Positions 1-13,727 of a stretch of 64,000 nucleotides of DNA are shown here, piece after piece (positions within the stretch are counted from its first letter, which is position 1; each line of letters begins with the position of its first letter). The notes beneath the pieces are model-generated. The model saw nothing but the letters and a program-made list of their open reading frames with translations. It was not told the DNA's origin and ran no database searches. Origin of the DNA: an uncultured Sphaerochaeta sp. (GTDB lineage Bacteria > Spirochaetota > Spirochaetia > Sphaerochaetales > Sphaerochaetaceae); the NCBI GenBank assembly GCA_965140595.1, contig OZ223274.1, forward strand, positions 1,806,856 to 1,870,855, given 5' to 3'. A program made the translations under genes and the position numbers.

Positions 1-686
1 TCATATTCCAAGACCCATTTGCCTCATTGAACCCCCGAATGACTGTTGCAGAAACTATTGGTGAAAGTTTGCTTATACAAAAGATATTCAAGCGCGGCCA
101 AGAAGCTGATCTGCTTGCGAGAATTTCTAAACTTATGGATTTGGTAGGGCTCTCCCCTCGCCTTATCAACAGCTACCCCCATGAACTTGATGGTGGCAGG
201 AGGCAACGTATCGGCATCGCCCGTGTACTCGCCCTTGATCCTAAGTTTGTGGTGTGTGATGAACCCGTCTCAGCTTTGGATGTCTCCATTCAGGCACAAA
301 TTCTCAACCTGATGCAGGATCTCCAGGAGGAGTTTGGGTTTACCTATCTTTTTATCACCCATGACCTCTCAGTCGTCAAGCATCTTTCAAACGATATCTT
401 GGTGATGTATCTCGGGCAAATGGTGGAAAAAGCTTCCTCTCAGGAGCTATTTGCAAAGCCACTTCATCCCTATACCCAAGCCTTGCTCTCTGCCATTCCT
501 GTCCCTGACCCTGACTACAAAACTGCTCGCCTCCTCTTGCAAGGCGAACTGACCAGCCCCATCGACCCTCTTCCTGGATGCCGTTTTGCCAAGCGCTGCC
601 CTTATGTCAGTGATGCCTGCCTCTCTGGAGACATCCCTCTCAAGGAAGTCAAAAAAGGGCATTTTGTTGCCTGTACCCTTGTGTAA
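1..686 (+). CDS. oppF: Oligopeptide/dipeptide ABC transporter ATP-binding protein (OppF/DppF family), 5' end truncated at the window edge
   Basis: The frame is open from base 3 ([13 protein letters not shown]). It has the ABC signature LSGGQ-like [15 protein letters not shown], Walker B VVCDEP and a C-terminal oligopeptide-ABC 'HPYTQALL' domain. Confidence 0.85.
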
Positions 687-729
687 TCGTTTGTTCCCGC
701 CCGTAGGGACATCGAAATAGGAGAAAGAA

Positions 730-2259
730 ATGAAAAGAGTTCTGACTGTACTTCTCGCATTGCTCTGCACCACGCTCATGTTTGCCGGAGGAGCAAAAGA
801 AAGCTCATCCCAAGCGGAGACAGGCTTCAAAGACACAATCGTCTTTGGTCAGGGTGCCGATGTCACTTCCTTCGACCCGCATGTGGGAAAAGAGACCCCA
901 GCGGTAGCTGTAACCAACCATATTTTCGACACATTGGTGGACACTGACCCCAAAACTGGGGAAGTCATTCCCCAGATTGCCGAAAGATGGGAACAGCTTT
1001 CCCCAGTTTCCTATCGGTTCTTCATCCGCAAAGGTATTACCTTCCATAATGGTGAAGAGCTCAAGGCTGACGATGTCAAATTCTCTCTTGACCGTGCCAT
1101 CGCAAGCGCTTCTGTCTCGTACATCGTTGATTTCATCAAGGAAGTCAAGATTGAAGACGACTACACAGTTGTTGTAACCACAAAGGCTCCTTATGGTCCC
1201 ACTTTGCGCAACCTTGCAGTCCCCTTTGCCGCAATTGTCCCCAAAGACTATGTGACAGCCAACCCTGATGCCTTGAAAACCAAGCCAGTGGGAAGCGGCC
1301 CTTACAAGTTTGTCTCTTGGGCACAGAGTGACAATGTGAAGCTTGAAGCCTTCGATCAGTATTTTGCGGGAGCCCCAAAGACCAAATATCTGGTGATGAA
1401 GGTTATTCCTGAAGCTGCCCAACGCACCATTGCTCTGGAAACAGGCGAACTGGATATTTCCTATGACATCCTCGTTTCTGATCTGAAACGAGTGACTGCC
1501 AACAAGGACCTCACGTTGTTTGAAGCTCCTTCCTTGACCTGTTTCTATATCTCGTTCAACATGCGCAAGGCTCCTTTCGACAACCAAATGGTTCGTCAGG
1601 CCATCAACATGGCCATCGACCGCCAGTTACTTGTCGATACTGTCAACAGTGGAACAGGTGCTGCTGCCGATGAAATCATCGCCCCAGCAGTATATGGTTA
1701 CTACTCTACCGGTGTGTGGGAATATAACCCAACCAAGGCTAAGGCACTTCTTGCCGAGGCTGGCTATCCTGATGGCTTCTCTTGCACCTTGTGGGTCAAC
1801 AACAACCAGAGCAGAGTTGAGATGTGTCAGGCTATCCAGGAGATGCTCAGAGAAATTGGTATCACCTGTAAGGTAGAGGTCATGGAATTCGGTACTTTCA
1901 TCAGCCGTTCTACCGCCGGGGAACATGACATGGGTTACTTTGGTTGGGTCACCTCCACAAAAGATGCTGACTACACCTATTATTCCTTGGAGCACAGCTC
2001 ACAGCAGGGTGCCCCTGGAAACAGGTCTTTCATCAATGATCCTGAAGTTGACCGCCTCGTTGAACTTGGACGCACTAGTGCAGATACCAAGGTCCGTGAT
2101 GCTGCCTACAAGGATTTGGCAATCAAACTGAAGGAAGTGGCAAACAACGCTCCCATCATCTATACTGCCATCACAGCAGGAGCCAGCAACAAAGTACAGA
2201 ACTTTGTGTTGGATCCAATTGGATATCACAGGCTTGAAGGTGTAACAGTAGCCAAGTAA
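730..2259 (+). CDS. ABC transporter substrate-binding protein, family 5 (peptide/nickel type), lipoprotein
   Basis: 509 aa with a signal peptide and Cys (LLCTTLMFAGG), typical SBP_bac_5 length and motifs. It lies directly downstream of oppF-like. Confidence 0.8.
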   Translation: MKRVLTVLLALLCTTLMFAGGAKESSSQAETGFKDTIVFGQGADVTSFDPHVGKETPAVAVTNHIFDTLVDTDPKTGEVIPQIAERWEQLSPVSYRFFIRKGITFHNGEELKADDVKFSLDRAIASASVSYIVDFIKEVKIEDDYTVVVTTKAPYGPTLRNLAVPFAAIVPKDYVTANPDALKTKPVGSGPYKFVSWAQSDNVKLEAFDQYFAGAPKTKYLVMKVIPEAAQRTIALETGELDISYDILVSDLKRVTANKDLTLFEAPSLTCFYISFNMRKAPFDNQMVRQAINMAIDRQLLVDTVNSGTGAAADEIIAPAVYGYYSTGVWEYNPTKAKALLAEAGYPDGFSCTLWVNNNQSRVEMCQAIQEMLREIGITCKVEVMEFGTFISRSTAGEHDMGYFGWVTSTKDADYTYYSLEHSSQQGAPGNRSFINDPEVDRLVELGRTSADTKVRDAAYKDLAIKLKEVANNAPIIYTAITAGASNKVQNFVLDPIGYHRLEGVTVAK

Positions 2260-2287
2260 GGCTTCTGGTTTCCACAAGACCAAAACA

Positions 2288-2320
2288 GGCAAAGAGCTGG
2301 ATCTCTCCGGCTCTTTGCCA
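2288..2320 (+). terminator. Hairpin (GGCAAAGAGC...GCTCTTTGCC, 10-bp stem) between the SBP and creatininase genes; possible attenuator or weak terminator
   Basis: A perfect inverted repeat was seen in the sequence. The T-tract after it is weak. Confidence 0.3.
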
Positions 2321-2337
2321 TCCATAGGAGAATAACC

Positions 2338-3099
2338 ATGTATTTGGCCCAGATAACATGGCCCAGAGCAGAGGCATACTTTAAGGAATCTGATATGGTA
2401 ATCATTCCAATAGGTAGCACTGAATGTCATGGAAGGCATATGCCTTTGGGAACTGATACGATGATTCCTGAAAAGATACTTCAACTTGTTGAAGAACTGA
2501 ACGATCGCATTATGATAGCTCCAACCATACCTTATGGTGCTTGTGAAAGCCTTTGGCCTTTCCCTGGTACCATCAACCTGGGAGGGGATCTACTATATCA
2601 AGTAGTAAAAAAAGTTGTAGAAAACCTTCGTTTTCATGGTGCAAGAAAGTTTATACTTCTCAATGGCCATGGAGGAAACATCAAAGCCCTGGAACGAATC
2701 GGCTATGAACTGGACAGTGATGGGTGCATGATGATCCTACTCAACTGGTGGCAAAATGTATGGGAGATGAATCCCCTTTGGAAGGGAGGTCATGGTGGTG
2801 GCGAAGAGACTGCTGCAGTCATGGCTATCGACGCTGACCTTATTGATACAAATGAGATTGACCACCCTTTAATTTTAAAAAATGTGAGTGATGCCTTCAA
2901 AGCCTCCGGTTTCAATACCGTGAAGTTCAAGGATGTTACCATAACCATACCCAGGCTTACCAACCATGTCACAGATAATGGCTGGATCGGGCCCGACCAC
3001 CCCAAACATGCCACAACTGAATGGGGTAAAGAGATGCTGGACTCTATGGCGGCTTATGTAGTCGCTTGTATTGAAGAATTTGAAAAGGTAGTGCTGTAA
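2338..3099 (+). CDS. Creatininase-family amidohydrolase
   Basis: 253 aa with the N-terminal IPIGSTECHG.HMPLGTD motif characteristic of the creatinine amidohydrolase family. The RBS is GGAGAATAACC ATG. Confidence 0.75.
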   Translation: MYLAQITWPRAEAYFKESDMVIIPIGSTECHGRHMPLGTDTMIPEKILQLVEELNDRIMIAPTIPYGACESLWPFPGTINLGGDLLYQVVKKVVENLRFHGARKFILLNGHGGNIKALERIGYELDSDGCMMILLNWWQNVWEMNPLWKGGHGGGEETAAVMAIDADLIDTNEIDHPLILKNVSDAFKASGFNTVKFKDVTITIPRLTNHVTDNGWIGPDHPKHATTEWGKEMLDSMAAYVVACIEEFEKVVL

Positions 3100-4176
3100 A
3101 TGAATACACAACGTACAATCGGTTATATTAAGAGAATCAGTGATGCCAATGGCATAAGCGGCTTTGAGGATGAGGTCCTCACTGTCCTTCGAGAAGAAGG
3201 CAAGGATTTGGGCGAATTTGCTGAGGACAGCATGCGCAACTTATACCTGTACAGGGAAGGAAACCAGGAAGGTCAGTGCACAGTCCAACTCAATGCCCAT
3301 ACCGATGAGGTTGGTTTCATGGTAAAGGCCATCCGCCCTGACGGAATGCTTGAATTCATCACAATTGGAGGTTGGATTCCCTCAAACGTTCCAGCCCATC
3401 TGGTCAGGATCAAGAACCAGGAGGGTGAGTACATCTCCGGTGTTGTAGCTAGCAAACCCCCTCATTTTATGAGTGAGACCGAAAAAAAGGCTTCCTTGGA
3501 GATTACCAGCCTAGTCATCGACATTGGGGCAAGAAGTGCTGATGAAGTTCGTGATAGCTACAAGGTCGGCATAGCTGCCCCGGTAGTGCCTGAGGTCACC
3601 TGTACCTATGATGAGAAGCATGACATCCTGGTTGGGAAGGCTTTTGATTGCCGTATCGGATGCGCCTCACTTCTTGCTACCTTGGAAGAACTGAAAGACC
3701 AATCATTGGGTGTAAATCTTGTGGGTGACTTCTCCAGCCAAGAAGAGGTCGGTACCCGAGGCTCAATTGTCAGTACCAACACCATTAAGGCAGATATTGC
3801 AATCGTCTTTGAAGGTTGTCCTGCTGATGACACAGTAGTCCCCGACTATCAGGCTCAGACTTGCATAAAGAAAGGCCCTATGCTTCGCCATATCGATGCT
3901 AGGATGATCACCAATCCTCGGTTCCAACGCTTCGCTTTGGACCTTGCCAAAAAGCATGGTATTCCCGTACAAGAAGCTGTAAGAAGTGCTGGTGCTACCA
4001 ATGGGGCTCCCATTCACCTTTCCAATGCAGGAGTTCCATCCATCGTTATCGGAGTTCCAGTACGGTATGCACACACCCATTATGGTATCTGCACCTACAG
4101 CGATGTCCAGAATAGTGTCAGGCTCGCCGTAGAAATCATCAAAAGCTTGAATGAAACAATAATTCGGAGTTTCTGA
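3100..4176 (+). CDS. M42 family metallopeptidase (glutamyl aminopeptidase/FrvX-like)
   Basis: 358 aa with GISGFEDEV at the N-terminus and an M42 fold pattern. The start abuts the creatininase stop. Confidence 0.75.
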   Translation: MNTQRTIGYIKRISDANGISGFEDEVLTVLREEGKDLGEFAEDSMRNLYLYREGNQEGQCTVQLNAHTDEVGFMVKAIRPDGMLEFITIGGWIPSNVPAHLVRIKNQEGEYISGVVASKPPHFMSETEKKASLEITSLVIDIGARSADEVRDSYKVGIAAPVVPEVTCTYDEKHDILVGKAFDCRIGCASLLATLEELKDQSLGVNLVGDFSSQEEVGTRGSIVSTNTIKADIAIVFEGCPADDTVVPDYQAQTCIKKGPMLRHIDARMITNPRFQRFALDLAKKHGIPVQEAVRSAGATNGAPIHLSNAGVPSIVIGVPVRYAHTHYGICTYSDVQNSVRLAVEIIKSLNETIIRSF

Positions 4177-4177
4177 T

Positions 4178-5239
4178 ATGCAGTATAGGATCGGTGGCAT
4201 GTTTGCCCTTGAACCACAGGCAAAAGGAGAACCATTCTTTCTCCAAAACATTGGGACTGACCTCAGGCACTATATGTCCGGTCGTTGTGCCCTCTATGGC
4301 TGCCTCAAGGAAATACGTGCCTCTGATACCAAACACAAAGCCTATGTACCCGCATATACTTGTGAGACTGTCCTCTCGAGCTATGAGAAAGCGGGATATG
4401 ACCTCTCTTTCTATGATGTGGACAGAGAAAGGCTTACCCCTTTGTTCAAGGAGGAAGATCTGCAAGATGTATCGGTGCTGGGATTGTGTGGATATTATGG
4501 ATTCAGCTCCTATGACAAAACTTTTGTACGCTATGCAAAGGAACAGGGAATAACAATCCTACAAGACACAACTCACAGCATGTTTTCTCTCGATGGGCAC
4601 TGCCCTGATGCTGATTACTATGCAGGGAGTGCCCGGAAGTGGATGGGAATAGCTTCAGGTGGAGTTGCCATCAAGCGAGAGGGCAAGTTTGCCTTTCCAA
4701 TGATCCCTCCGGAAGAGATCCATCTGAAGGGACGCTACCTTGCCATGGAATACAGAGAAAAAGCACTGCATACAGATGACGGCTACAATGACGACAAAGC
4801 CTATGAGGTGTTCTGGGAAACAGAGTTGCGCCTACGCCAGATGTTTGATACCTTTCAAGCAGATACTGGATCAGAGGAAATACTCTCACACTACAACCCT
4901 ACCCCTCTCGTCACAAAGAGGAGAGCCAATTATCAGATTGTAGTGGACAATCTACAGGAGTCTGAACTGTGCAAAGCTGTCTTTCCTGTTTTGGATGATA
5001 AAAGCTGTCCAAGCCATTTCTGTTTCTACAGCACCAACAGAGACCAAACACAAAAGCAACTCGAGCATATGGGTATCCGAAGTACAGTATATTGGCCACT
5101 ACCTCCTATGCTGAAAAATCCTACAGAGTTCCCTCATAGCACATGGATCTACGACCACATTGCCAGTGTTCAGATAGACCAGCGCTATGATGAGAGGGCT
5201 ATGGAATATCTGGGAAAATCACTTTCACATCTTCGTTGA
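4178..5239 (+). CDS. PLP-dependent aminotransferase-fold protein (DegT/DnrJ/EryC1-like), function unknown
   Basis: 353 aa with a pattern of S..K......GG (GSARKWMGIASGG) resembling the DegT-family PLP lysine region. Similarity is weak. Confidence 0.4.
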   Translation: MQYRIGGMFALEPQAKGEPFFLQNIGTDLRHYMSGRCALYGCLKEIRASDTKHKAYVPAYTCETVLSSYEKAGYDLSFYDVDRERLTPLFKEEDLQDVSVLGLCGYYGFSSYDKTFVRYAKEQGITILQDTTHSMFSLDGHCPDADYYAGSARKWMGIASGGVAIKREGKFAFPMIPPEEIHLKGRYLAMEYREKALHTDDGYNDDKAYEVFWETELRLRQMFDTFQADTGSEEILSHYNPTPLVTKRRANYQIVVDNLQESELCKAVFPVLDDKSCPSHFCFYSTNRDQTQKQLEHMGIRSTVYWPLPPMLKNPTEFPHSTWIYDHIASVQIDQRYDERAMEYLGKSLSHLR

Positions 5240-5387
5240 TACCATACCACTGCAAGGAAAATCCTATTCAGGTAGAGAGACACTCCCAAGAATATGTTCT
5301 TTCTTGGTTTATCCTCCGATTCGCTTGACAAAGATGCAACAGAAGCGAACTATATAGATATCTAAGCACTGTCCCTACAAGGATATC

Positions 5388-6365
5388 ATGTATACAAATC
5401 ACACCATCATCGTCCTACACAACCAGATCCAAAGCACCAGTCCAGAGGATGTTCTCGATATAGAGAGACAAGCCAAATGGATAGAAGAAATCCTCCAGAA
5501 ACAGGGATACAAAACCCTTCTGGTCCCATTTTCCCTTGAGGCTCTCTCGATGCTTGCAACAATGAACAGTGATACACAAATCATCGTTTTCAACCTAGTG
5601 GACTCAGAGCCAGGAAAAGAAAACCTTGCCTATCTGGTCCCAGGCTTGCTTGAACATATGCATCTGCCATATACAGGGTGTACCTTACAAAATCTTTATG
5701 TGACTACCAACAAGATGCTTGCCAAGCGAGTACTCAAGGCAGCAGGGATCGAAACACCGCCTTGGGTCTACAGAGACGAGACGGAACCACTAAACAACAG
5801 TTCCCTCAGGCGTTACATCATAAAACCTATATCTGAAGACGCTTCCATAGGTTTGAATGATAGCTCCATAGTCGGTGCAGAGAATGTTATGGTAGCATTG
5901 AAAGCCAAGGAAGAGGCCCTACTCACCCCTTGCTTCGCAGAGGCCTTCATTGAGGGACGGGAGTTTACTGCCTGTATGTATGGAACAACCCAGGAGTGTA
6001 CGGTTCTTACCCCTTACGAATGGGTATTCCAAGGCTATGAGGAGCATCAGAAGGAGAAGATAATCACCTATGATGCAAAATGGACTGAAAATTCATTTGG
6101 CTATGAGCACATAGTGGCAAAATACCATGCAGACACATGTGACCAGCCACTGCTGGAAAAACTAACGGCAATTGCCCTCCAATGTTGGAAAGCCTTCTCT
6201 CTTACTGGCTATGCCCGTGTAGATTTTCGAATCGATGAAAAGGGAAAGCCCTGGGTGTTGGAAGTAAACGGCAACCCCAGTTTCTATGGCTTCTATCACC
6301 TGGCTCTGGAGGGTGAGTTTACCTTTGGGGGCCTTGTTCAAGATATTGTGGAGCAGGCGCTCTAG
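5388..6365 (+). CDS. ATP-grasp ligase, D-Ala-D-Ala ligase-like (paralog of 7321..8274)
   Basis: 325 aa with motifs IIKP.SEDAS.G, FIEGREF, GYARVDFR and LEVNGNP typical of the Ddl-like ATP-grasp fold. Confidence 0.75.
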   Translation: MYTNHTIIVLHNQIQSTSPEDVLDIERQAKWIEEILQKQGYKTLLVPFSLEALSMLATMNSDTQIIVFNLVDSEPGKENLAYLVPGLLEHMHLPYTGCTLQNLYVTTNKMLAKRVLKAAGIETPPWVYRDETEPLNNSSLRRYIIKPISEDASIGLNDSSIVGAENVMVALKAKEEALLTPCFAEAFIEGREFTACMYGTTQECTVLTPYEWVFQGYEEHQKEKIITYDAKWTENSFGYEHIVAKYHADTCDQPLLEKLTAIALQCWKAFSLTGYARVDFRIDEKGKPWVLEVNGNPSFYGFYHLALEGEFTFGGLVQDIVEQAL

Positions 6366-6824
6366 TCAGAGGTATTTATCTACCCAGACCAACGACTCCA
6401 ATTCAAAGCCCATGTCTCGATAGAGAGCTTGGGCTTTTGCATTTGTTGGATGGGTCACCATAGCAAGATAGGAGACCCCCTGCTTCTCTGTCCACATCTG
6501 GACATACCCCAAAAGTTCTGAGCCAAGCCCTTGGTTTCTACACTCCTTCGAAACAAACAGCTCATTCAACCAAAAGTAGTCCCCTTTTGTCTCCAAGCCA
6601 CAACAGATGTTCCCATAGGCAAACCCAATGGCAGTTTCATCCTCCTCATAGGCGACAAAAAAAGCTGCCCTACTCTCCACTTTCATGGAATTTAGTATTT
6701 CTGAGGCTACCTCAATCCTACTTTGGTGATAGCCAATGAAGGACATCTGTTGCTGAACTAGGGTTATCACCCTCTCAAAATCCAGGATATGTTCGTCATG
6801 GTAATAAGCAATGATATTGGACAT
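6366..6824 (-). CDS. GNAT family N-acetyltransferase
   Basis: 152 aa with the acetyl-CoA-binding motif region (R.QGLGSELL). The stop codon abuts the convergent gene stop (6363-6368). Confidence 0.75.
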   Translation of the reverse strand: MSNIIAYYHDEHILDFERVITLVQQQMSFIGYHQSRIEVASEILNSMKVESRAAFFVAYEEDETAIGFAYGNICCGLETKGDYFWLNELFVSKECRNQGLGSELLGYVQMWTEKQGVSYLAMVTHPTNAKAQALYRDMGFELESLVWVDKYL

Positions 6825-6833
6825 ATTCTCTTC

Positions 6834-7316
6834 CTACCAAGCCTTCACATAGATGAGCTTGTTGTCGTTGGGGGCATAGTAAGACTCTAGTTCTGCCTCC
6901 AGATGATACCCGTTGCGTTCATAAAAGGATCTTGTCGGCACATACAGGTCACTGGAGGACGTCTCAATATAGATTCGCGTTCCTCCACGCCTCTCTATTT
7001 CCTGTTCCGTCTGTTTGAGGAGCACTGTCCCTAACCCCTGTCCACGATAGGTGGTATCGACTGCTATCCAATACAGATCGTAGCTGTTCCTTGTTCCAGG
7101 GATAGGACCAAAACAGGTGTAGCCTCTGACTGAGGATTCATGCATTGCAAACTGGAAGAAGTAGTCGCAGCCTTCCCCTTGCTCAAGGCGCTCACGTACG
7201 AGCGACACCCCTACCTCCTGCTCTTCGGCATTGAAAAATCCTGAAGTGCAAAGTATTGAAGCGATGCTCTCAATATCGGAAGCAACAGGTTGCTCTCTAA
7301 AGGTATAGGTTTCCAT
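6834..7316 (-). CDS. GNAT family N-acetyltransferase
   Basis: 160 aa with the motif RGQGLGTVLL. It lies in the operon with kamA. Confidence 0.75.
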   Translation of the reverse strand: METYTFREQPVASDIESIASILCTSGFFNAEEQEVGVSLVRERLEQGEGCDYFFQFAMHESSVRGYTCFGPIPGTRNSYDLYWIAVDTTYRGQGLGTVLLKQTEQEIERRGGTRIYIETSSSDLYVPTRSFYERNGYHLEAELESYYAPNDNKLIYVKAW

Positions 7317-7320
7317 AAGG

Positions 7321-8274
7321 TTACCCTTTGATGATCAAGGCGATCATCTGCTCATATGTAAGACCCAATCGTTGGGTTGCTGCAACAAAGCCACTGTCCT
7401 GAGCAATACAAGGATTCAGATTCACTTCGAGAATGTAGGGTTCATCCAACTCAGTTACGCGAAAATCTACCCTTGCATAGCCTTTCCCCCCGAAAAGCAG
7501 GAAGGCCTTACGGCTCAACTCTTGCAGTGTCTTAAGCAAGGGCTCATCATCTAGGCACAAGGAGAATGTGCGTTGGGTATGGATATACTCGAAAGAGGAT
7601 TCCTCCCACTTCGCTTCATAACCAACGATAGCCGGTTTATCTGAGGGATAATCTATAAAAAGCATTTCAGCGGGGTCAAAGACTATCGTTTCTCCATCAA
7701 CAGTAAGGAGGGAAACACTAAATTCCCGCCCTTGTATGAAGGTCTCTGCAAAGAGAGAACCTCCTACAAGGGCCTTTGCAAGGGAATCCTCATCATGAAA
7801 AGTTTGGACTGAAGCATCGGTAATACCCACCGAAGCTTCTTCAGCCACTGGCTTGATGATAAGGGGATGATCTAAGAAATCAGAAAGGCCCCCATTACTT
7901 GAAGCTTCAAGCCACGGAGGCGTCGGAAGCCCTTCCTTGGACATAAGATGTTTGGCAAAAAGCTTGTCTGAAGAGGACATCAGAGCATGGCTACCTCCAC
8001 CGGTAAACCTGATACCCATTGTTTCAAACAGAGCAGGGGCAAGATGGAGGAGACGACACCCCTCCAAGGTCTCCACAAGGTTGAACATGAGATCAGGTTT
8101 GGATGCAAGGATTCTCTTTCTCATCCTCTCTAGGTTCAGGGAGAAATCCAGATGAAGCACCTCATGACCTAAGGCCTTGAGGGCTTTACGTACTTGCTTT
8201 ACTTCCAATGCAGTGTCCAGTTCGTCTTTGCTAGGTTTTTTGGAAAGTTTGTCCGATACAATCAGGATACGCAT
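7321..8274 (-). CDS. ATP-grasp ligase, D-Ala-D-Ala ligase-like
   Basis: 317 aa with motifs IIKPVAEEASVG, FIQGREF, GYARVDFR and LEVNLNP. It is a paralog of 5388..6365. Confidence 0.75.
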   Translation of the reverse strand: MRILIVSDKLSKKPSKDELDTALEVKQVRKALKALGHEVLHLDFSLNLERMRKRILASKPDLMFNLVETLEGCRLLHLAPALFETMGIRFTGGGSHALMSSSDKLFAKHLMSKEGLPTPPWLEASSNGGLSDFLDHPLIIKPVAEEASVGITDASVQTFHDEDSLAKALVGGSLFAETFIQGREFSVSLLTVDGETIVFDPAEMLFIDYPSDKPAIVGYEAKWEESSFEYIHTQRTFSLCLDDEPLLKTLQELSRKAFLLFGGKGYARVDFRVTELDEPYILEVNLNPCIAQDSGFVAATQRLGLTYEQMIALIIKG

Positions 8275-9260
8275 TGGCTCTTCATCTCCCCTGCTCGAAG
8301 GAGGGCAGAATCCATTATCCGCGTTATCAGCTCATGATAGCTTATACCTGACTTCCTACAGAGGATAGGGAGATCAGAATCAACAGGATTCAAACCGGCA
8401 AGGGGATTCACTTCCAAGAAGTTCACCCTACCCTGGCCATCCATCTTCACATCGACTCGTCCACCATCACGACACCCAAGGGCATTCCAAGCTCCCAGGG
8501 CAACCTTTTCGCATTCATACGCCACTTCTCCTTCAACAAGATGATACGTAGCAAACTCCAGATACTCCTGCTTGGTCTTGTAGGAGTAAACGCCCAAGTC
8601 ACAAGCGGGGTCTACAATGATTTCCATCACCCCTGTTGTCCTTGCGTTTTCTCTTGTCCCTGTTATCCCGACAGTAAATTCCCGTCCTTCAAGATAGGTC
8701 TCTACCAGAACAGGTTGCCTGAACTCTTCGAGAAGGAGTTTCGAAACATGAGAGAGGGCTAGCGTATCCCTGACAATCGAATTGGCACTGATACCCATCC
8801 CTGTCCCACCACCTACGGGCTTGAGAAACAAGGGGAATGGAAGGTTAACTCCTACCACTTCTCCCTCGTCATGGATCACATAATAGTCAGGGGTAGGCAC
8901 GCCCTGCTCCCTGACTACAGCCTTGGTTATCCCCTTATGCAAAGTGAGAGCCAGAATTTGGGCGTCAGAGAACACATAGGGAATTTCATAGGCATCAAGG
9001 AGGGCTGGGATCTGCGCTTCACGACACAAACCATGTAACCCCTCTGCAATGTTGAAGACAAGGTCGCAACGATTGCCCTGGGCAAGATAAGAAACCAGTG
9101 CCTTGATATTACCAATGCGGATAGTCTCATAGCCAAGCAGCCTGAGAGAATCGTCAATGGCATCAATTGTTACAAGGTTGTCAAATTCAGCGACTGCCTC
9201 ATGTGGGTATCCCGCCGCGAGGTAGTCGTCTTTGAGGTCATAGGTCATTCCAATTAGCAT
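8262..9260 (-). CDS. ATP-grasp ligase, D-alanine-D-alanine ligase family
   Basis: The start is at ATG 9260 (MLIGMTYDL), immediately after the kamA stop at 9262-9264. It has Ddl-like motifs (LFLKPVGGGTGMG, ETYLEGREFTVG, FLEVNPL). Confidence 0.75.
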   Translation of the reverse strand: MLIGMTYDLKDDYLAAGYPHEAVAEFDNLVTIDAIDDSLRLLGYETIRIGNIKALVSYLAQGNRCDLVFNIAEGLHGLCREAQIPALLDAYEIPYVFSDAQILALTLHKGITKAVVREQGVPTPDYYVIHDEGEVVGVNLPFPLFLKPVGGGTGMGISANSIVRDTLALSHVSKLLLEEFRQPVLVETYLEGREFTVGITGTRENARTTGVMEIIVDPACDLGVYSYKTKQEYLEFATYHLVEGEVAYECEKVALGAWNALGCRDGGRVDVKMDGQGRVNFLEVNPLAGLNPVDSDLPILCRKSGISYHELITRIMDSALLRAGEMKSQCVS

Positions 9261-9261
9261 G

Positions 9262-10542
9262 TCAGTCCTCTGTACCCTCTTGGGCACGGTCGGGATAGGC
9301 AAAAACCTTCCCTTCATAGTTGCGGAGATAGAGGTTCTTCTCGTCTCGTCCCACTTCATAGTCGGGCAGGATGGGGACTTTTCCACCCCCTCCAGGAGTG
9401 TCTATGACATACTGGGGAACAGCATATCCACTGGTAAAGCCCCTGAGGCCTTGGATAAGTTCCTTACCCTTGTCCACCGTTGTGCGAAAGTGTGCAGATC
9501 CTGTGATTGGGTCACACTGGAAGAGGTAGTAGGGCTTGATCCTCACCTTCAGCAGACGGTGGTACAGCTCCATAAGGGTCTCAACGGAATCATTTACCCC
9601 TTTCAGCAGAACAGTCTGACTACCCATGACCACCCCTGCATCAGCTAAGCTGTTGCAGGCCTTGGAGGACTCTTCTGAGATCTCATCAGGATGGGTGCAG
9701 TGCACACTCAGATAAAGGGGCTTGTAGCGCTTGAGGATTCGCAGGAGATTTGGGGTAATCCGTTGGGGAAGTACCATGGGGACCTTGGTCCCTATCCTGA
9801 CCATCTCAACATGCTTGATGGAAGCAATTTCCTTGAGCAACCATTCAATCTTCTCATCAGAAAGGGTCAAGGGATCCCCTCCAGAGATGACAACATCCCG
9901 GATGGCAGGAGTATTCCTGATATACTCTATGGCATTCTTCCAATGAGTTTCCAACGGCTCAGTGTGTCCGCCTACAAGGCGGGATCGGGTACAATACCTG
10001 CAGTAGACTGAACAGAAGCTGGTAGTAAGAAACAGAGCACGATCCGGATACCGATGAACGATTCCTGGGACTGGGCTGGTGTTCTCTTCATGCAAGGGAT
10101 CTTCACTCTCCCCAGGAGAAGTAAAGGACTCAAGGATGGAGGGAACCACACTCTTTCGCAGGGCACTATTCGACTCAGAAGGATCGATAAGACTGAGATA
10201 GTAGGGGGTTACGGAGAAAGGAAAGCTGGATTCAGCATTTTCGAGGGCTTGACGCTCTTCGGTTGTAAGGGTAAGGAAACGGGAGATTTGAGCAAGGGTG
10301 GTAATTCGATGGGATACCTGCCAATGCCAATCATTCCACATTTCTTTGGTCGCGTCCGGAAAATAGGTCTTTCTGAACTTGGTGGTTCGGCTCCAACGAG
10401 AGTTTTCTATGCTTGCTCTGATTCGTTTGGGGTCGCTTGTTCCAGGGACACTCTGTGAAGGGCATACAGGCATGCCTTTGCCTATAAGCGGAGGGTCACC
10501 ATCATCGACATTAATTGTTTGATTTGTAGTAAAATGTTCCAT
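9262..10542 (-). CDS. kamA: Lysine 2,3-aminomutase (radical SAM, PLP-dependent)
   Basis: 426 aa with the radical-SAM CSVYCRYC motif and a KamA-type N-terminus (WHWQVSHRITT). The length matches KamA (about 416 aa) rather than EpmB. Confidence 0.85.
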   Translation of the reverse strand: MEHFTTNQTINVDDGDPPLIGKGMPVCPSQSVPGTSDPKRIRASIENSRWSRTTKFRKTYFPDATKEMWNDWHWQVSHRITTLAQISRFLTLTTEERQALENAESSFPFSVTPYYLSLIDPSESNSALRKSVVPSILESFTSPGESEDPLHEENTSPVPGIVHRYPDRALFLTTSFCSVYCRYCTRSRLVGGHTEPLETHWKNAIEYIRNTPAIRDVVISGGDPLTLSDEKIEWLLKEIASIKHVEMVRIGTKVPMVLPQRITPNLLRILKRYKPLYLSVHCTHPDEISEESSKACNSLADAGVVMGSQTVLLKGVNDSVETLMELYHRLLKVRIKPYYLFQCDPITGSAHFRTTVDKGKELIQGLRGFTSGYAVPQYVIDTPGGGGKVPILPDYEVGRDEKNLYLRNYEGKVFAYPDRAQEGTED

Positions 10543-11454
10543 AGGAACCTTCTTCGATCAGAGCGATTCATCCAAGCAAAAAACCATCATGATCCTCTAA
10601 TCTATTCCTTGCTAAAGTGTATCATCAAGGATAAAAAACGTCTCTAGTAAGATGATGATATTTAGGATATTTTTTAGATATTTGTCAGTGCATTTTACCT
10701 GTGTAAAGAAGAGAAAAAAATTCCACTGACGTGTAGCAATATCTGTCACCGCTTGGGAGAACACTCTAATAGTTTCAAGAGATAGCATTCTGAAGACAAA
10801 TCAGTTTTGCATGCTAAAACTCGTGATTATTCCTTTGTACATGCAGAGAAACTGGTTATGATGCTTTTACGAATGCATGGTATCGAGTGTATCATAATTT
10901 TTCGCTATACTCTCGCTATGAAATATATCGAAAGATATCTGCAACCCAACACAATAACTCGTCTTTACAAAGGAAAAGCTTTCATCCTCTATGCCCCCCG
11001 TCAATGAGGCAAATCGACTCTTATGAAGCACCTTATCAGAGAGCAAAGGCTAGACCCAGTCATCCTCAACAGGGATACTATGGATGTACTTCTCTTCTTG
11101 AAAGAGTCACCATGAGCCAGGGGATCAGATTCTGAATACTAAAATGACTGTATTCATATAAAGACACCAGAGCCTTGTGGGAGGATTTTCTTGTTTTGAA
11201 GAGAGTAAAAGCAAGTATGTATGCTCAAAACTATACCAAATCCTATTTTTGGAGGCCCCTAGCCAAATGAAAGTCGATTATCTCAGGACACAGAATAATA
11301 AGTTAACAGCCTTTACATTCAATTGGAGTCCAAAGATTCAGACCAGAAGAACTAAAACCGTTACAAACAGATATACTGAAGCCTCTCTTATGCTCGTAAA
11401 TTCCAGTAATTGTAACTCTTTCCTCAGGTTACATAGCCCAGATGGCAATCCTTC

Positions 11455-12756
11455 ATGAACCCACCCTTACCTACCCAAAAAGCCCAGAAAGCAGCCTCAC
11501 TTCTACAAGAGGCACTAGACTTCCATAAAGCTCTCGACTATGAGGGAGAAAAGCTCATATCCACTGACTACCTCTTTGGTCCTGCAAGAGGGCAGATGTT
11601 TGGCATCCTCGTCTGTGAGGACAAAGAGGGTAACGAGGTTGTACTCAAGGCCTTCTCCGGCCAATATGATGGAGTGTGGCTCATCCCAGGTTGGGTAGGA
11701 CCCGTAGCCGATCCTCTTTGCTTTGACCAGATAGTCAAAGCAAACGATGAAGCCCTGCATGAATTGACTGACAAGATTACCAGTGGGAAGTATGTCGACT
11801 CTCTTTTGCTTGCTCAACAAAGAAGAGCTCTCTCTCAATCGGTGTTGCAAGAACTCTACCGTCTCTATGAGTTTCGGTGCATCGATGGGAGCACTAAAAC
11901 TCTCTCTGATATCTTTGGCTCAAAGCTGCCCCCTACAGGGACAGGGGACTGCTGTGCACCCAAATTACTGCATTGGGCATGTACCCATGATTTGCAGCCC
12001 ATTAGCATGGCTGAGTTTTATTATGGCTTGCCAAACAAGTCAGGGAACAGAGAGCACAAGGCATTCTATGGCCCTTGTGACGATAAGTGCCAACCATTGC
12101 TCAAGCATATGCTAGGGTTGGACATCATCTACTGTGATGCATCATTGCTTGTGGTAAACAAAGTGGGGGGGCTTCTTTCGGTTCCCGGAAGAGGTGAAGA
12201 TAAACAGGATTGTGTGGAAAGCAGAGTAAGACGCCTTTTCCCTTCTGCACCCAAGCAGTGTGCTGTCCATCGTTTGGATATGGACACCTCAGGTCTGTTG
12301 GTCATCGCCTTGGACAAGGAAACCCACAGGCTTCTCTCAATACAGTTTATGGATAAAGAGATTGAGAAAGAGTACGTTGCCCTCTTGGAAGGGGTGGTCA
12401 AACAAGAAGGGGGAGAAGTAACACTCCCCTTCCGCCTCGATGTGGATCACCGGCCCTACCAGATCTTTGATGAAGAGCAGGGCAAATGGGGAACCACCTT
12501 GTGGAAAAAGCTGCGTGTAGAATCATCAAATGCTGGGTTAGTCACTCGAGTACACTTCACCCCCCTCACAGGCAGGACTCACCAACTGAGACTACACAGT
12601 TCCCATCCCAAGGGTATCGGGCATGCAATAGTAGGTGACCGTCTCTACGGAACAGGCAAAGAGGGTGATAGGCTCTGCCTTCACGCCTCAGTCCTATCAT
12701 TCTTCCATCCTAAAACCGGAGAGAAGCTTTCATTCACCTCACTGACTCCTTTTTAA
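11455..12756 (+). CDS. RluA-family pseudouridine synthase with an about 220-aa N-terminal domain of unknown function
   Basis: The C-terminal half has the RluA catalytic motifs (HRLDMDTSGLLV, THQLRLH). The N-terminal domain contains GDCCAPKLL and was not recognised. Confidence 0.7.
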   Translation: MNPPLPTQKAQKAASLLQEALDFHKALDYEGEKLISTDYLFGPARGQMFGILVCEDKEGNEVVLKAFSGQYDGVWLIPGWVGPVADPLCFDQIVKANDEALHELTDKITSGKYVDSLLLAQQRRALSQSVLQELYRLYEFRCIDGSTKTLSDIFGSKLPPTGTGDCCAPKLLHWACTHDLQPISMAEFYYGLPNKSGNREHKAFYGPCDDKCQPLLKHMLGLDIIYCDASLLVVNKVGGLLSVPGRGEDKQDCVESRVRRLFPSAPKQCAVHRLDMDTSGLLVIALDKETHRLLSIQFMDKEIEKEYVALLEGVVKQEGGEVTLPFRLDVDHRPYQIFDEEQGKWGTTLWKKLRVESSNAGLVTRVHFTPLTGRTHQLRLHSSHPKGIGHAIVGDRLYGTGKEGDRLCLHASVLSFFHPKTGEKLSFTSLTPF

Positions 12757-12938
12757 TATTGGGAAGCAGTAGAAGTAGGAGTACCATTAGGAGTAGTATT
12801 TGTGACAGAAAGAGAAATCCAAGAAAACTTGTTCGAAAGGTATGTATTGCACTTGGATAGTATCATGAAGGTTTCTTACTTTCTCACAGAAACAATATGT
12901 AGTATAGTTAGATTATACATAAGATAGAGGGGAGACCG

Positions 12939-13727
12939 ATGAAGCGAAAAAACAATGCCATCTATGTGGATCTGGAGAATATTCCTGCAAGTTTAGACCT
13001 CAAAAGTCTCTTCGATGAACTGACTCTCAAACACAATACCAATCCAGATGAAGAGAATGTGTTCGTCATCAAGCTAGCCTGTGGCAATGCCGCTTCCATC
13101 AAAAAGCTGGAGAAACAGCTTGCAGAATACAACTTCTACATACGAGATACTCCCTCCATAACCACCAATTACAAGAACAGGGCAGATCTCATCATCTCTC
13201 TCGAAGCCTTGGAAACCATCATCATTCAGAGCCCCATCATTGACCGGTATGTATTCATAACCTCTGACTCTGACTTTACTGTCATCATGGAAACCCTGAG
13301 AAAATATGGCAAGGAAGTCTACCTTGTCACAAAGGAATCAGTCAGTGACAAACCCATCTTCAACAATAGCTGTGATGAGATCCTCATCATGGAATCCTTC
13401 CAGACCAAACCTAAAATAGAGGAAACAAAAACCAATTCGGCAAAAGAAAAGGACAAGGAGAAGCCAGAATCCAACAATACCAAGCGCAATGACAAACTGG
13501 TAGAATCAATCATGAAAAAGGTGATCGACTCCATAGATCCTGATACCTGGTTACTAGTGAGTCTAATTGGGATAAAGTTTCATCAGATGGACAAGAGCAG
13601 AACTATTGAACGAAGCAGCTACAAAACAATAGGAAATCTCATGCTCAAGATGGAAAAAGATAATCTGATAGAGAGAAGACTTAATGACAAGGGACATCCA
13701 GAAGTCAAACCAATCCCCAAACAATAG
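12939..13727 (+). CDS. NYN (LabA-like) domain protein with a C-terminal OST-HTH/LOTUS-like domain
   Basis: It has an N-terminal NYN/PIN-like layout (IYVDLENI, ITSDSDF) and a C-terminal helix-rich module. Confidence 0.55.
   Translation: MKRKNNAIYVDLENIPASLDLKSLFDELTLKHNTNPDEENVFVIKLACGNAASIKKLEKQLAEYNFYIRDTPSITTNYKNRADLIISLEALETIIIQSPIIDRYVFITSDSDFTVIMETLRKYGKEVYLVTKESVSDKPIFNNSCDEILIMESFQTKPKIEETKTNSAKEKDKEKPESNNTKRNDKLVESIMKKVIDSIDPDTWLLVSLIGIKFHQMDKSRTIERSSYKTIGNLMLKMEKDNLIERRLNDKGHPEVKPIPKQ

Follow-up and report, generated by a model that had tools for sequence, protein, structure and literature searches.

A kamA-linked cassette of two ATP-grasp ligases and an acetyltransferase, shared by Sphaerochaeta and many other bacteria, is a candidate pathway for a beta-lysine-derived amide

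In a 64,000-nt stretch of DNA from an uncultured Sphaerochaeta sp. (the window, whose positions serve as coordinates below), five genes lie head-to-tail on the minus strand, from 10542 to 6366. They encode, in order, a KamA-family aminomutase, two ATP-grasp ligases related to D-alanine–D-alanine ligase (Ddl), here named AG1 and AG2, and two small acetyltransferases, GNAT1 and GNAT2. The first four, KamA-AG1-AG2-GNAT1, form a self-contained core that is conserved in the same gene order across phyla, and the species that carry this cassette number in the hundreds and span more than ten bacterial phyla. With moderate confidence, we read it as a cytoplasmic, non-ribosomal four-enzyme module for a small beta-lysine-derived amide, which would be joined by two extra enzymes in this genome. 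The case is read from sequence and lies in the enzyme families and their catalytic residues, a lysine-type substrate pocket, the loss of D-Ala-specific residues from the ligases, operon packing, conservation and gene fusions. The cassette is a real, widespread and apparently uncharacterised pathway in which known enzyme types stand in a new arrangement. The genes concerned are as follows:

9262..10542, minus strand: KamA-family radical-SAM, pyridoxal 5'-phosphate (PLP) aminomutase; 426 aa; Pfam Radical_SAM and LAM_C
8262..9260, minus strand: AG1, Ddl-like ATP-grasp ligase; 332 aa; Pfam Dala_Dala_lig_C
7321..8274, minus strand: AG2, second Ddl-like ATP-grasp ligase; 317 aa; Pfam Dala_Dala_lig_C
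6834..7316, minus strand: GNAT1, small N-acetyltransferase (acetyl-CoA type); 160 aa; Acetyltransf_1 3e-13
6366..6824, minus strand: GNAT2, second small GNAT; 152 aa; Pfam Acetyltransf_1 1e-15
5388..6365, plus strand: AG3, third Ddl-like ATP-grasp ligase; 325 aa; Dala_Dala_lig_C 2e-14

The operon is tightly packed, with a 1-nt spacer between kamA and AG1, a 13-nt overlap of AG1 and AG2, a 4-nt gap between AG2 and GNAT1, and a 9-nt gap between GNAT1 and GNAT2. An earlier note, written from the letters of this stretch, had described a packed minus-strand kamA operon with the motif CSVYCRYC, two ATP-grasp ligases and two GNATs at these positions, and our gene calls agree with it, including its claim that an ATP-grasp gene starts 2 nt after the kamA stop: the AG1 ATG at 9260 lies 2 nt past the last base of the kamA TGA. 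A longer AG1 open reading frame (ORF), starting with GTG from 9386 (374 aa), was rejected, since homologues of 332 aa cover 100% of the form that starts at ATG-9260. The same note spoke of three ATP-grasp proteins, and the third is accounted for by AG3, which is convergent to the operon; the stop codons of AG3 and GNAT2 abut with zero intergenic bases. AG1 and AG2 matched Pfam Dala_Dala_lig_C at E-values of 1e-25 and 2e-21, and from the Pfam E-values of the operon proteins we conclude that these are real genes and not chance ORFs. Their closest homologues, at 85–91% identity, are in Sphaerochaeta isolates and metagenome-assembled genomes (MAGs).

A scan with AG1-specific motifs, in which each species was represented by one genome, gave at least 577 confirmed matches, of which we analysed the best 80; the gene-presence counts that follow are restricted to loci with enough flanking DNA. 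Among the best 80 of these at least 577 matches, AG1 identity ranged from 52 to 89%, and across phyla the protein is unusually conserved (52–60% identity). KamA lies immediately 5' of AG1 in 71 of 74 assessable loci, AG2 comes after AG1 in 68 of 70, GNAT1 is next in order in 55 of 63, and the four-gene set is complete in 51 of 60. Conservation of the neighbourhood with kamA, which the earlier note had put forward for checking, is thus evident from the 71 of 74 loci and from the gene fusions described below. Hosts among the best 80 belong to Spirochaetota, Acidobacteriota, Planctomycetota, Bacillota, Sumerlaeota, Desulfobacterota (Desulfovibrionaceae, Syntrophales and Desulfobacterales) and Bacteroidota, the last including the isolate Prolixibacter denitrificans; further hosts are Alphaproteobacteria (Virgifigura deserti), Victivallaceae, Bacteriovoracaceae, Gastranaerophilaceae and one Dependentiae bin. 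The identical gene order also occurs on contigs of Planctomycetes and Margulisiibacteriota, and a search of a protein library of 50%-identity clusters gave 626 representatives with an AG1 match at E<=1e-30. Two Bacillota loci have KamA and AG1 alone, which makes this pair the minimal core.

The five genes had initially been taken as one unit, a view that does not hold: the conserved core has four genes, and the system is not specific to spirochaetes. GNAT2 was present only in Sphaerochaetaceae-like genomes, at nine loci (L006–L008, L010–L012, L016, L019 and L021). It co-occurs with AG3, also at L016, L019 and L021, where the peptide-uptake operon that precedes AG3 in the window is absent. GNAT2 and AG3 are therefore lineage-specific add-ons of the Sphaerochaetaceae.

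Gene fusions join each adjacent pair of the core: KamA with AG1, AG1 with AG2, and AG2 with a GNAT. AG1-AG2 fusions of 520–790 aa, with the modules in either order, made up about 40 of the 150 best among the 626 cluster representatives; Pfam recognised two Dala_Dala_lig_C stretches in all three that we scanned. In L086, such a fusion lies between kamA and a GNAT gene, 3' of a sigma54 activator. A 746-aa protein (P0251; L085) carries Radical_SAM, LAM_C and Dala_Dala_lig_C and represents a KamA-AG1 fusion; at that locus (6001-10666) it is followed by a major facilitator superfamily (MFS) transporter and then AG2, with transposase fragments flanking both sides. L003 encodes a 480-aa AG2-GNAT fusion.

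AG1 was also seen joined to other domains, among them a Cys-rich N-terminal extension in some metagenomic homologues. P0257 has an N-terminal CxxCxxCC domain (PF03692), putatively metal-chelating according to Pfam, and AG1 of L003 (8001-9728) has a Cys-rich N-terminal extension, visible in the sequence, that is probably CxxCxxCC as in P0257. The anaerobic protist Paratrimastix pyriformis has a protein (P0388, KAJ4454857.1) that joins an AG1-like ATP-grasp domain to leucine-rich repeats, which suggests that the ligase was transferred into a eukaryote and acquired a protein-interaction domain.

The aminomutase contains the motif FCSVYCRYC and matches the Clostridium lysine 2,3-aminomutase structure (PDB 2A5H) with an E-value of 1.4e-131. 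We aligned 76 cassette-linked aminomutases to 2A5H and use its residue numbering here. The CxxxCxxC cysteines C125, C129 and C132 and the PLP lysine K337 are invariant in all 76, as are R134, D293 and D330. In 2A5H, we take Arg134 to bind the carboxylate of the substrate, and Asp293 and Asp330 to bind the epsilon-ammonium of lysine; glutamate 2,3-aminomutase reportedly has Lys and Asn in place of the two lysine-binding Asp residues. Because R134, D293 and D330 are all invariant, the pocket fits free L-lysine, not glutamate, and the enzyme is a predicted lysine 2,3-aminomutase making beta-lysine. TIGR00238, for the KamA family, was the only NCBIfam model passed (348 bits, cut-off 199); the EpmB model TIGR03821 scored 274 bits, below its cut-off of 369. 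The LAM_C match is limited to profile positions 1-57 of 127, and the C terminus is short and without Zn-site cysteines; the Zn ligand C268 is not conserved in the cassette aminomutases, and the window protein carries an N-terminal extension of about 58 aa. The cassette aminomutases form a distinct subfamily of the KamA family.

For the ligases, we aligned 82 AG1, 66 AG2 and 13 AG3 sequences to Escherichia coli DdlB, whose numbering is used. The ATP/Mg residues K97, K144, E180, E187, K215, R255, D257 and N272 are invariant, except for one E187D each in AG2 and AG3, and E270 is invariant apart from Asp in 5 of the 66 AG2 sequences. By contrast, residues specific for D-Ala are replaced. Ser150 is Thr in AG1 and Ala in AG2 and AG3; Tyr216 is variable in AG1 and an invariant Trp in AG2 and AG3; Leu282 is an invariant Asp in AG1 and Gly in AG2 and AG3; and His63 is Glu in AG1 and mostly Glu or Asp in AG2 and AG3. 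Glu15 aligns with Asp in AG2; in AG1 its equivalent could be either Leu9, with which it aligns, or the invariant Asp8, and because of this one-residue ambiguity we rejected, as unreliable, an attempt to read ligase specificity from the N-terminal alignment to Ddl. Ddl is the nearest sequence and fold family for all three proteins, and AlphaFold models of the ligases are confident, with predicted local distance difference test (pLDDT) scores of 90 and 91. With the NCBIfam Ddl models, the best scores of the three were 135, 114 and 107 bits, where 243 are required. With their ATP/Mg residues kept and D-Ala-specific positions replaced, AG1, AG2 and AG3 are not bona fide Ddl, in line with the earlier expectation that they would prove distinct from cell-wall enzymes. 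AG1 and AG2 share 25% identity and belong to different subfamilies, and AG3, 33% identical to AG2, is a paralogue of the AG2 type.

Both GNATs carry the acetyl-CoA motif R/Q-x-x-G-x-G, as read in their sequences. GNAT1 of the window matches PDB 2R7H with an E-value of 9e-36, and cassette GNAT1 of an Oleidesulfovibrio MAG matches it at 1.5e-74. On these scores 2R7H, a structural-genomics entry described as a 'putative D-alanine N-acetyltransferase of GNAT family', is a GNAT1 orthologue whose name appears to derive from the neighbouring 'Ddl' genes. We know of no assayed function for it, and none surfaced in our literature searches. A guess that 2R7H corresponds to Dde_3044 found no confirmation: the searches turned up a single tag, Dde_3047, which carries a phosphatase annotation. 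The best NCBIfam match of GNAT1 was rimI, below cut-off, and neither GNAT1 nor GNAT2 matched the AblB model (presumably TIGR03827) in NCBIfam at E<=1e-3. GNAT2 has just 25% identity to GNAT1 over 71 aa and thus is no recent duplicate of it; its nearest PDB relatives, all weak, are AAC(6'), polyamine and nourseothricin acetyltransferases.

In the pathway that we infer, including its step order, its co-substrates and the amine that is acetylated, the KamA-family enzyme would use S-adenosylmethionine, a [4Fe-4S] cluster and PLP to convert free L-lysine to beta-lysine. AG1, the partner most tightly coupled to KamA, is predicted to make the first amide bond, with beta-lysine as one participant, by way of an acyl-phosphate. 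AG2 would catalyse a second amide-bond step that appends another unit, and GNAT1 would use acetyl-CoA to acetylate one of the free amines that remain. In the Sphaerochaetaceae, another ligation by AG3 and another acetylation by GNAT2 may follow. The pathway would end in a di-, tri- or tetra-(pseudo)peptide that contains beta-lysine and is N-acetylated. As its physiological role, we favour that of a compatible solute or polyamine-like metabolite, by analogy with the AblAB and NAGGN (N-acetylglutaminylglutamine amide) systems. The earlier note had likewise proposed a pathway for an acetylated beta-lysine peptide; the enzyme types, the lysine-type pocket and the genetic coupling speak for that proposal, and its more specific claims, a di- or tripeptide product and a role for it, found no support. 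Each of the three conditions on which that note would have given up its idea was checked, and none was seen to hold.

Several observations weigh against this pathway or narrow it. The aminomutase misses the equivalog cut-offs of the lysine model TIGR03820 (AblA/KamA; 458 bits, cut-off 525), the glutamate model TIGR04368 (437 bits, cut-off 650) and the arginine model (368 bits, cut-off 600), so that its assignment to lysine rests on the roles of the pocket residues. AG1 and AG2 occur without KamA within reach in three loci (L044, L054 and L070), and GNAT1 is missing from 8 of 63; hence, a supply of beta-lysine in cis is not obligatory, nor is acetylation. The KamA-AG1 fusion comes from one metagenomic gene call and may be an assembly error or a frameshift artefact. 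The N-terminal motif of the ligases differs from that of Ddl and aligns too weakly for substrate specificity to be read from it. A protein with at least five transmembrane segments is encoded within two genes of the cassette in 23 of 80 loci, which is about the background rate, and with membrane proteins not enriched, export is no general feature of the cassette. The osmolyte role is drawn from analogy, and many source habitats, judged from record titles (digesters, groundwater, freshwater sediment), are not obviously saline.

The same enzymes could act on a protein instead of a small molecule. Beta-lysylation of a side chain or C terminus would then be followed by extension and acetylation, on a target encoded elsewhere, and we consider this unlikely. 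We are equally doubtful of its more detailed form, in which AG1 attaches beta-lysine independently of EpmA, AG2 extends it and GNAT1 caps it, the target being a translation factor or a ribosomal or other conserved protein. Known analogues are EpmAB acting on elongation factor P (EF-P), RimK on S6 and LysX on LysW, and the parts of the cassette parallel such modifiers of the translation machinery, with an aminomutase like EpmB, ligases like RimK and LysX, and a GNAT like RimI, rimI being the best, if sub-cut-off, NCBIfam match of GNAT1. The unusual conservation of AG1 across phyla, its fusions to leucine-rich repeats in Paratrimastix and to CxxCxxCC in P0257 and probably L003, and the absence of a transporter near most loci would also suit a protein target. 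However, efp is absent from the window and from the 84 loci examined, no ribosomal-protein gene lies near the cassette in any locus examined, and no ORF of 30–95 aa that might encode a carrier or precursor is conserved near it across loci, the clusters of such ORFs being out-of-frame AG1 shadows or tRNA. The aminomutase is nearer to KamA/AblA than to EpmB (458 against 274 bits, the latter under its cut-off of 369), and both ligases are nearest to Ddl, a small-molecule ligase. Moreover, the spread across phyla is patchy, as for an accessory trait, and in a few loci transporters are embedded in the cassette (an MFS gene in L085) or follow it (ABC-2 exporters in L048 and L083).

The kinship of the ligases to Ddl, their closest fold and sequence family, could also point to the cell envelope, with the cassette making an alternative peptidoglycan dipeptide, a cross-bridge or another envelope-linked beta-lysine peptide. 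An Mpl/MurC-like ligase, its family named by reading the sequence without a profile hidden Markov model, lies immediately 3' of the cassette in the Desulfobacteraceae loci L038, L056 and L061, and an M23 peptidase is nearby in three loci. Yet such Mpl and M23 genes adjoin the cassette only in close relatives of one another, and in a census of 96 nearest neighbours, genes of the mur, fem or glycosyltransferase kind were not consistently linked. As the ligases have not kept the D-Ala-binding residues and reach about half of the Ddl cut-offs, and as the cassette is present in phyla with very different envelopes, an envelope precursor seems to us improbable. We give still less credence to plain N-epsilon-acetyl-beta-lysine synthesis of the AblAB kind, or lysine fermentation, with the ATP-grasp genes as unrelated neighbours. 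The AblAB osmolyte pathway and the kamA-yodP pair of Bacillus subtilis do consist of KamA plus a GNAT, and Pelobacter offers a further example (PMC3543383). But neither GNAT matches the AblB model, the aminomutase stays under the AblA cut-off, and it is the ligases that are bound tightest to KamA, by fusions, the 1-nt spacer and the loci with KamA and AG1 alone. As to fermentation, no gene of the kamDE, kdd or kce type was recognised in the inspected recurrent neighbour families of the flanks or in the 96-neighbour census, no dedicated search having been made; the earlier note had named kamDE and kce as what a catabolic cluster would contain.

The proposed amide pathway resembles several known systems in part. 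AblA and AblB constitute the N-epsilon-acetyl-beta-lysine pathway of methanogens and some bacteria; the cassette likewise has a KamA-family aminomutase followed by a GNAT in one operon, with the lysine-binding residues conserved, but its aminomutase scores 458 bits where 525 are required, it lacks an AblB-type GNAT, and two ligases stand between aminomutase and GNAT. The NAGGN osmolyte system consists of Ngg, which is a GNAT and ATP-grasp fusion, AsnO and an M42 peptidase. It shares with the cassette the combination of N-acetylation and ATP-grasp peptide-bond formation to give a small capped peptide, and the AG2-GNAT fusion of L003 recalls Ngg. An M42 peptidase is also encoded in the window, but next to the cassette only in the closest relatives, and its score with the NAGGN-type peptidase model (TIGR03106) is 34 bits, where 398 are required; GNAT2 reaches 22 bits against the Ngg cut-off of 569 (TIGR03103), no AsnO amidotransferase was seen, and the building block of the cassette comes from the aminomutase. 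PylB and PylC, too, combine a radical-SAM rearrangement of lysine directly with a Ddl-related ligase. However, PylB is neither of the KamA family nor a PLP-dependent aminomutase, the cassette ligases are far closer to Ddl than to PylC, and the cassette has a second ligase and a GNAT and no PylD. Failing membership of the AblAB, NAGGN and PylB/PylC systems, the cassette would work like them without belonging to any.

Of the remaining comparisons, Ddl and VanA are the best sequence and fold match for AG1–AG3, with the full ATP/Mg catalytic set, but the cassette ligases are linked to kamA, not to mur genes, and their scores are about half of the cut-offs. In the EpmB/EpmA system, a KamA-family aminomutase also feeds beta-lysine to a dedicated ligase; EpmA, however, is a paralogue of lysyl-tRNA synthetase (LysRS) whereas the cassette ligase is an ATP-grasp enzyme, efp is not linked, and the EpmB model is missed (274 against 369 bits). 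The cassette also differs from ATP-grasp systems for peptides made by the ribosome and modified after translation (RiPPs) or of the LysW type, in that no small precursor or carrier gene adjoins its ligases. Full-text literature searches, with the comparative-genomics survey of Iyer et al. 2009 outside their coverage, returned no description of the cassette, which agrees with the earlier statement that no pathway of such composition had been described. Those papers that we consulted dealt with AblAB, with sigma54 in a general survey or with an unrelated TupA-like ATP-grasp.

If the proposed pathway is correct, hundreds of species, spread over more than ten phyla, have in common a dedicated, uncharacterised route to a beta-lysine metabolite; sulfate reducers, syntrophs, Bacteroidales of the gut and of digesters, and Sphaerochaeta are among them. 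This would be a third route of beta-lysine use, besides N-acetyl-beta-lysine and EF-P modification, and would provide functions for two large protein groups that are automatically annotated as 'D-alanine--D-alanine ligase', a misannotation that can mislead surveys of cell-wall synthesis and vancomycin resistance. Were protein modification correct instead, a new post-translational modification system would extend across many anaerobic phyla. As the cassette comprises four genes, has no membrane parts and includes an orthologue of solved structure (2R7H), it is directly testable by heterologous expression.

Beyond the four core genes, the flanks vary between phyla. The Pfam census of the 96 nearest neighbours had no dominant family; histone-deacetylase, sigma54-activator and MatE domains were found five times each and ABC ATPases four times. 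PADLOC defence models gave zero matches for seven proteins. An Rfam scan of window positions 5000-13000 at E<=1 returned no matches and therefore no known riboswitch or leader, and promoter and terminator scans found sites no more numerous than in shuffled sequence. One region upstream of the operon is nevertheless conserved:

10543..10710, minus strand: conserved 5' leader/promoter region of the operon; the palindrome GGTTCCtATGGAACa spans the kamA start codon

About 110–170 nt 5' of kamA have 75–85% nucleotide identity at the same position in Sphaerochaeta relatives, and a promoter-like TTGATG...TAGATT lies inside this leader. The rest of the intergenic region (10714-11453, about 740 bp) is not shared with relatives and matched neither Rfam nor Pfam.

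Upstream of AG3, a plus-strand operon (27-5239) encodes an OppF-like ATPase, a family-5 peptide-binding protein, a creatininase-family amidohydrolase, the M42 aminopeptidase and a 353-aa protein (4178-5239) that has no match in Pfam, NCBIfam, PDB or PADLOC. Of the relatives, only the three closest Sphaerochaeta (L008–L010) have this operon beside the cassette; it could serve for uptake and hydrolysis of a small (acyl)peptide, which may be what the cassette itself makes.

A protein of about 590 aa, in which a GNAT is fused to a histone-deacetylase-family domain, is encoded co-directionally beside the cassette in L044, L051, L062, L064, L068 (11839-13599) and L079. Desulfovibrionaceae and some unclassified MAGs have it downstream; in the Bacteroidales MAG L044, where no kamA is present within 9 kb, it is immediately 5' of AG1. 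This neighbour hints at reversible N-acetylation of an aliphatic amine. In Sphaerochaeta relatives as in the window, kamA is divergent from a gene for a 433-aa RluA-family pseudouridine synthase (11455-12756, plus strand), of which only residues of about 220–430 form the catalytic domain and the N-terminal 220 or so match nothing. In the Spirochaetales loci L013, L014, L017 and L078, a tRNA gene, recognised through its translated 'shadow' ORF (for example, L013, 7035-7151), and a MatE efflux gene are convergent to the cassette, an arrangement that looks like plain synteny rather than functional linkage.

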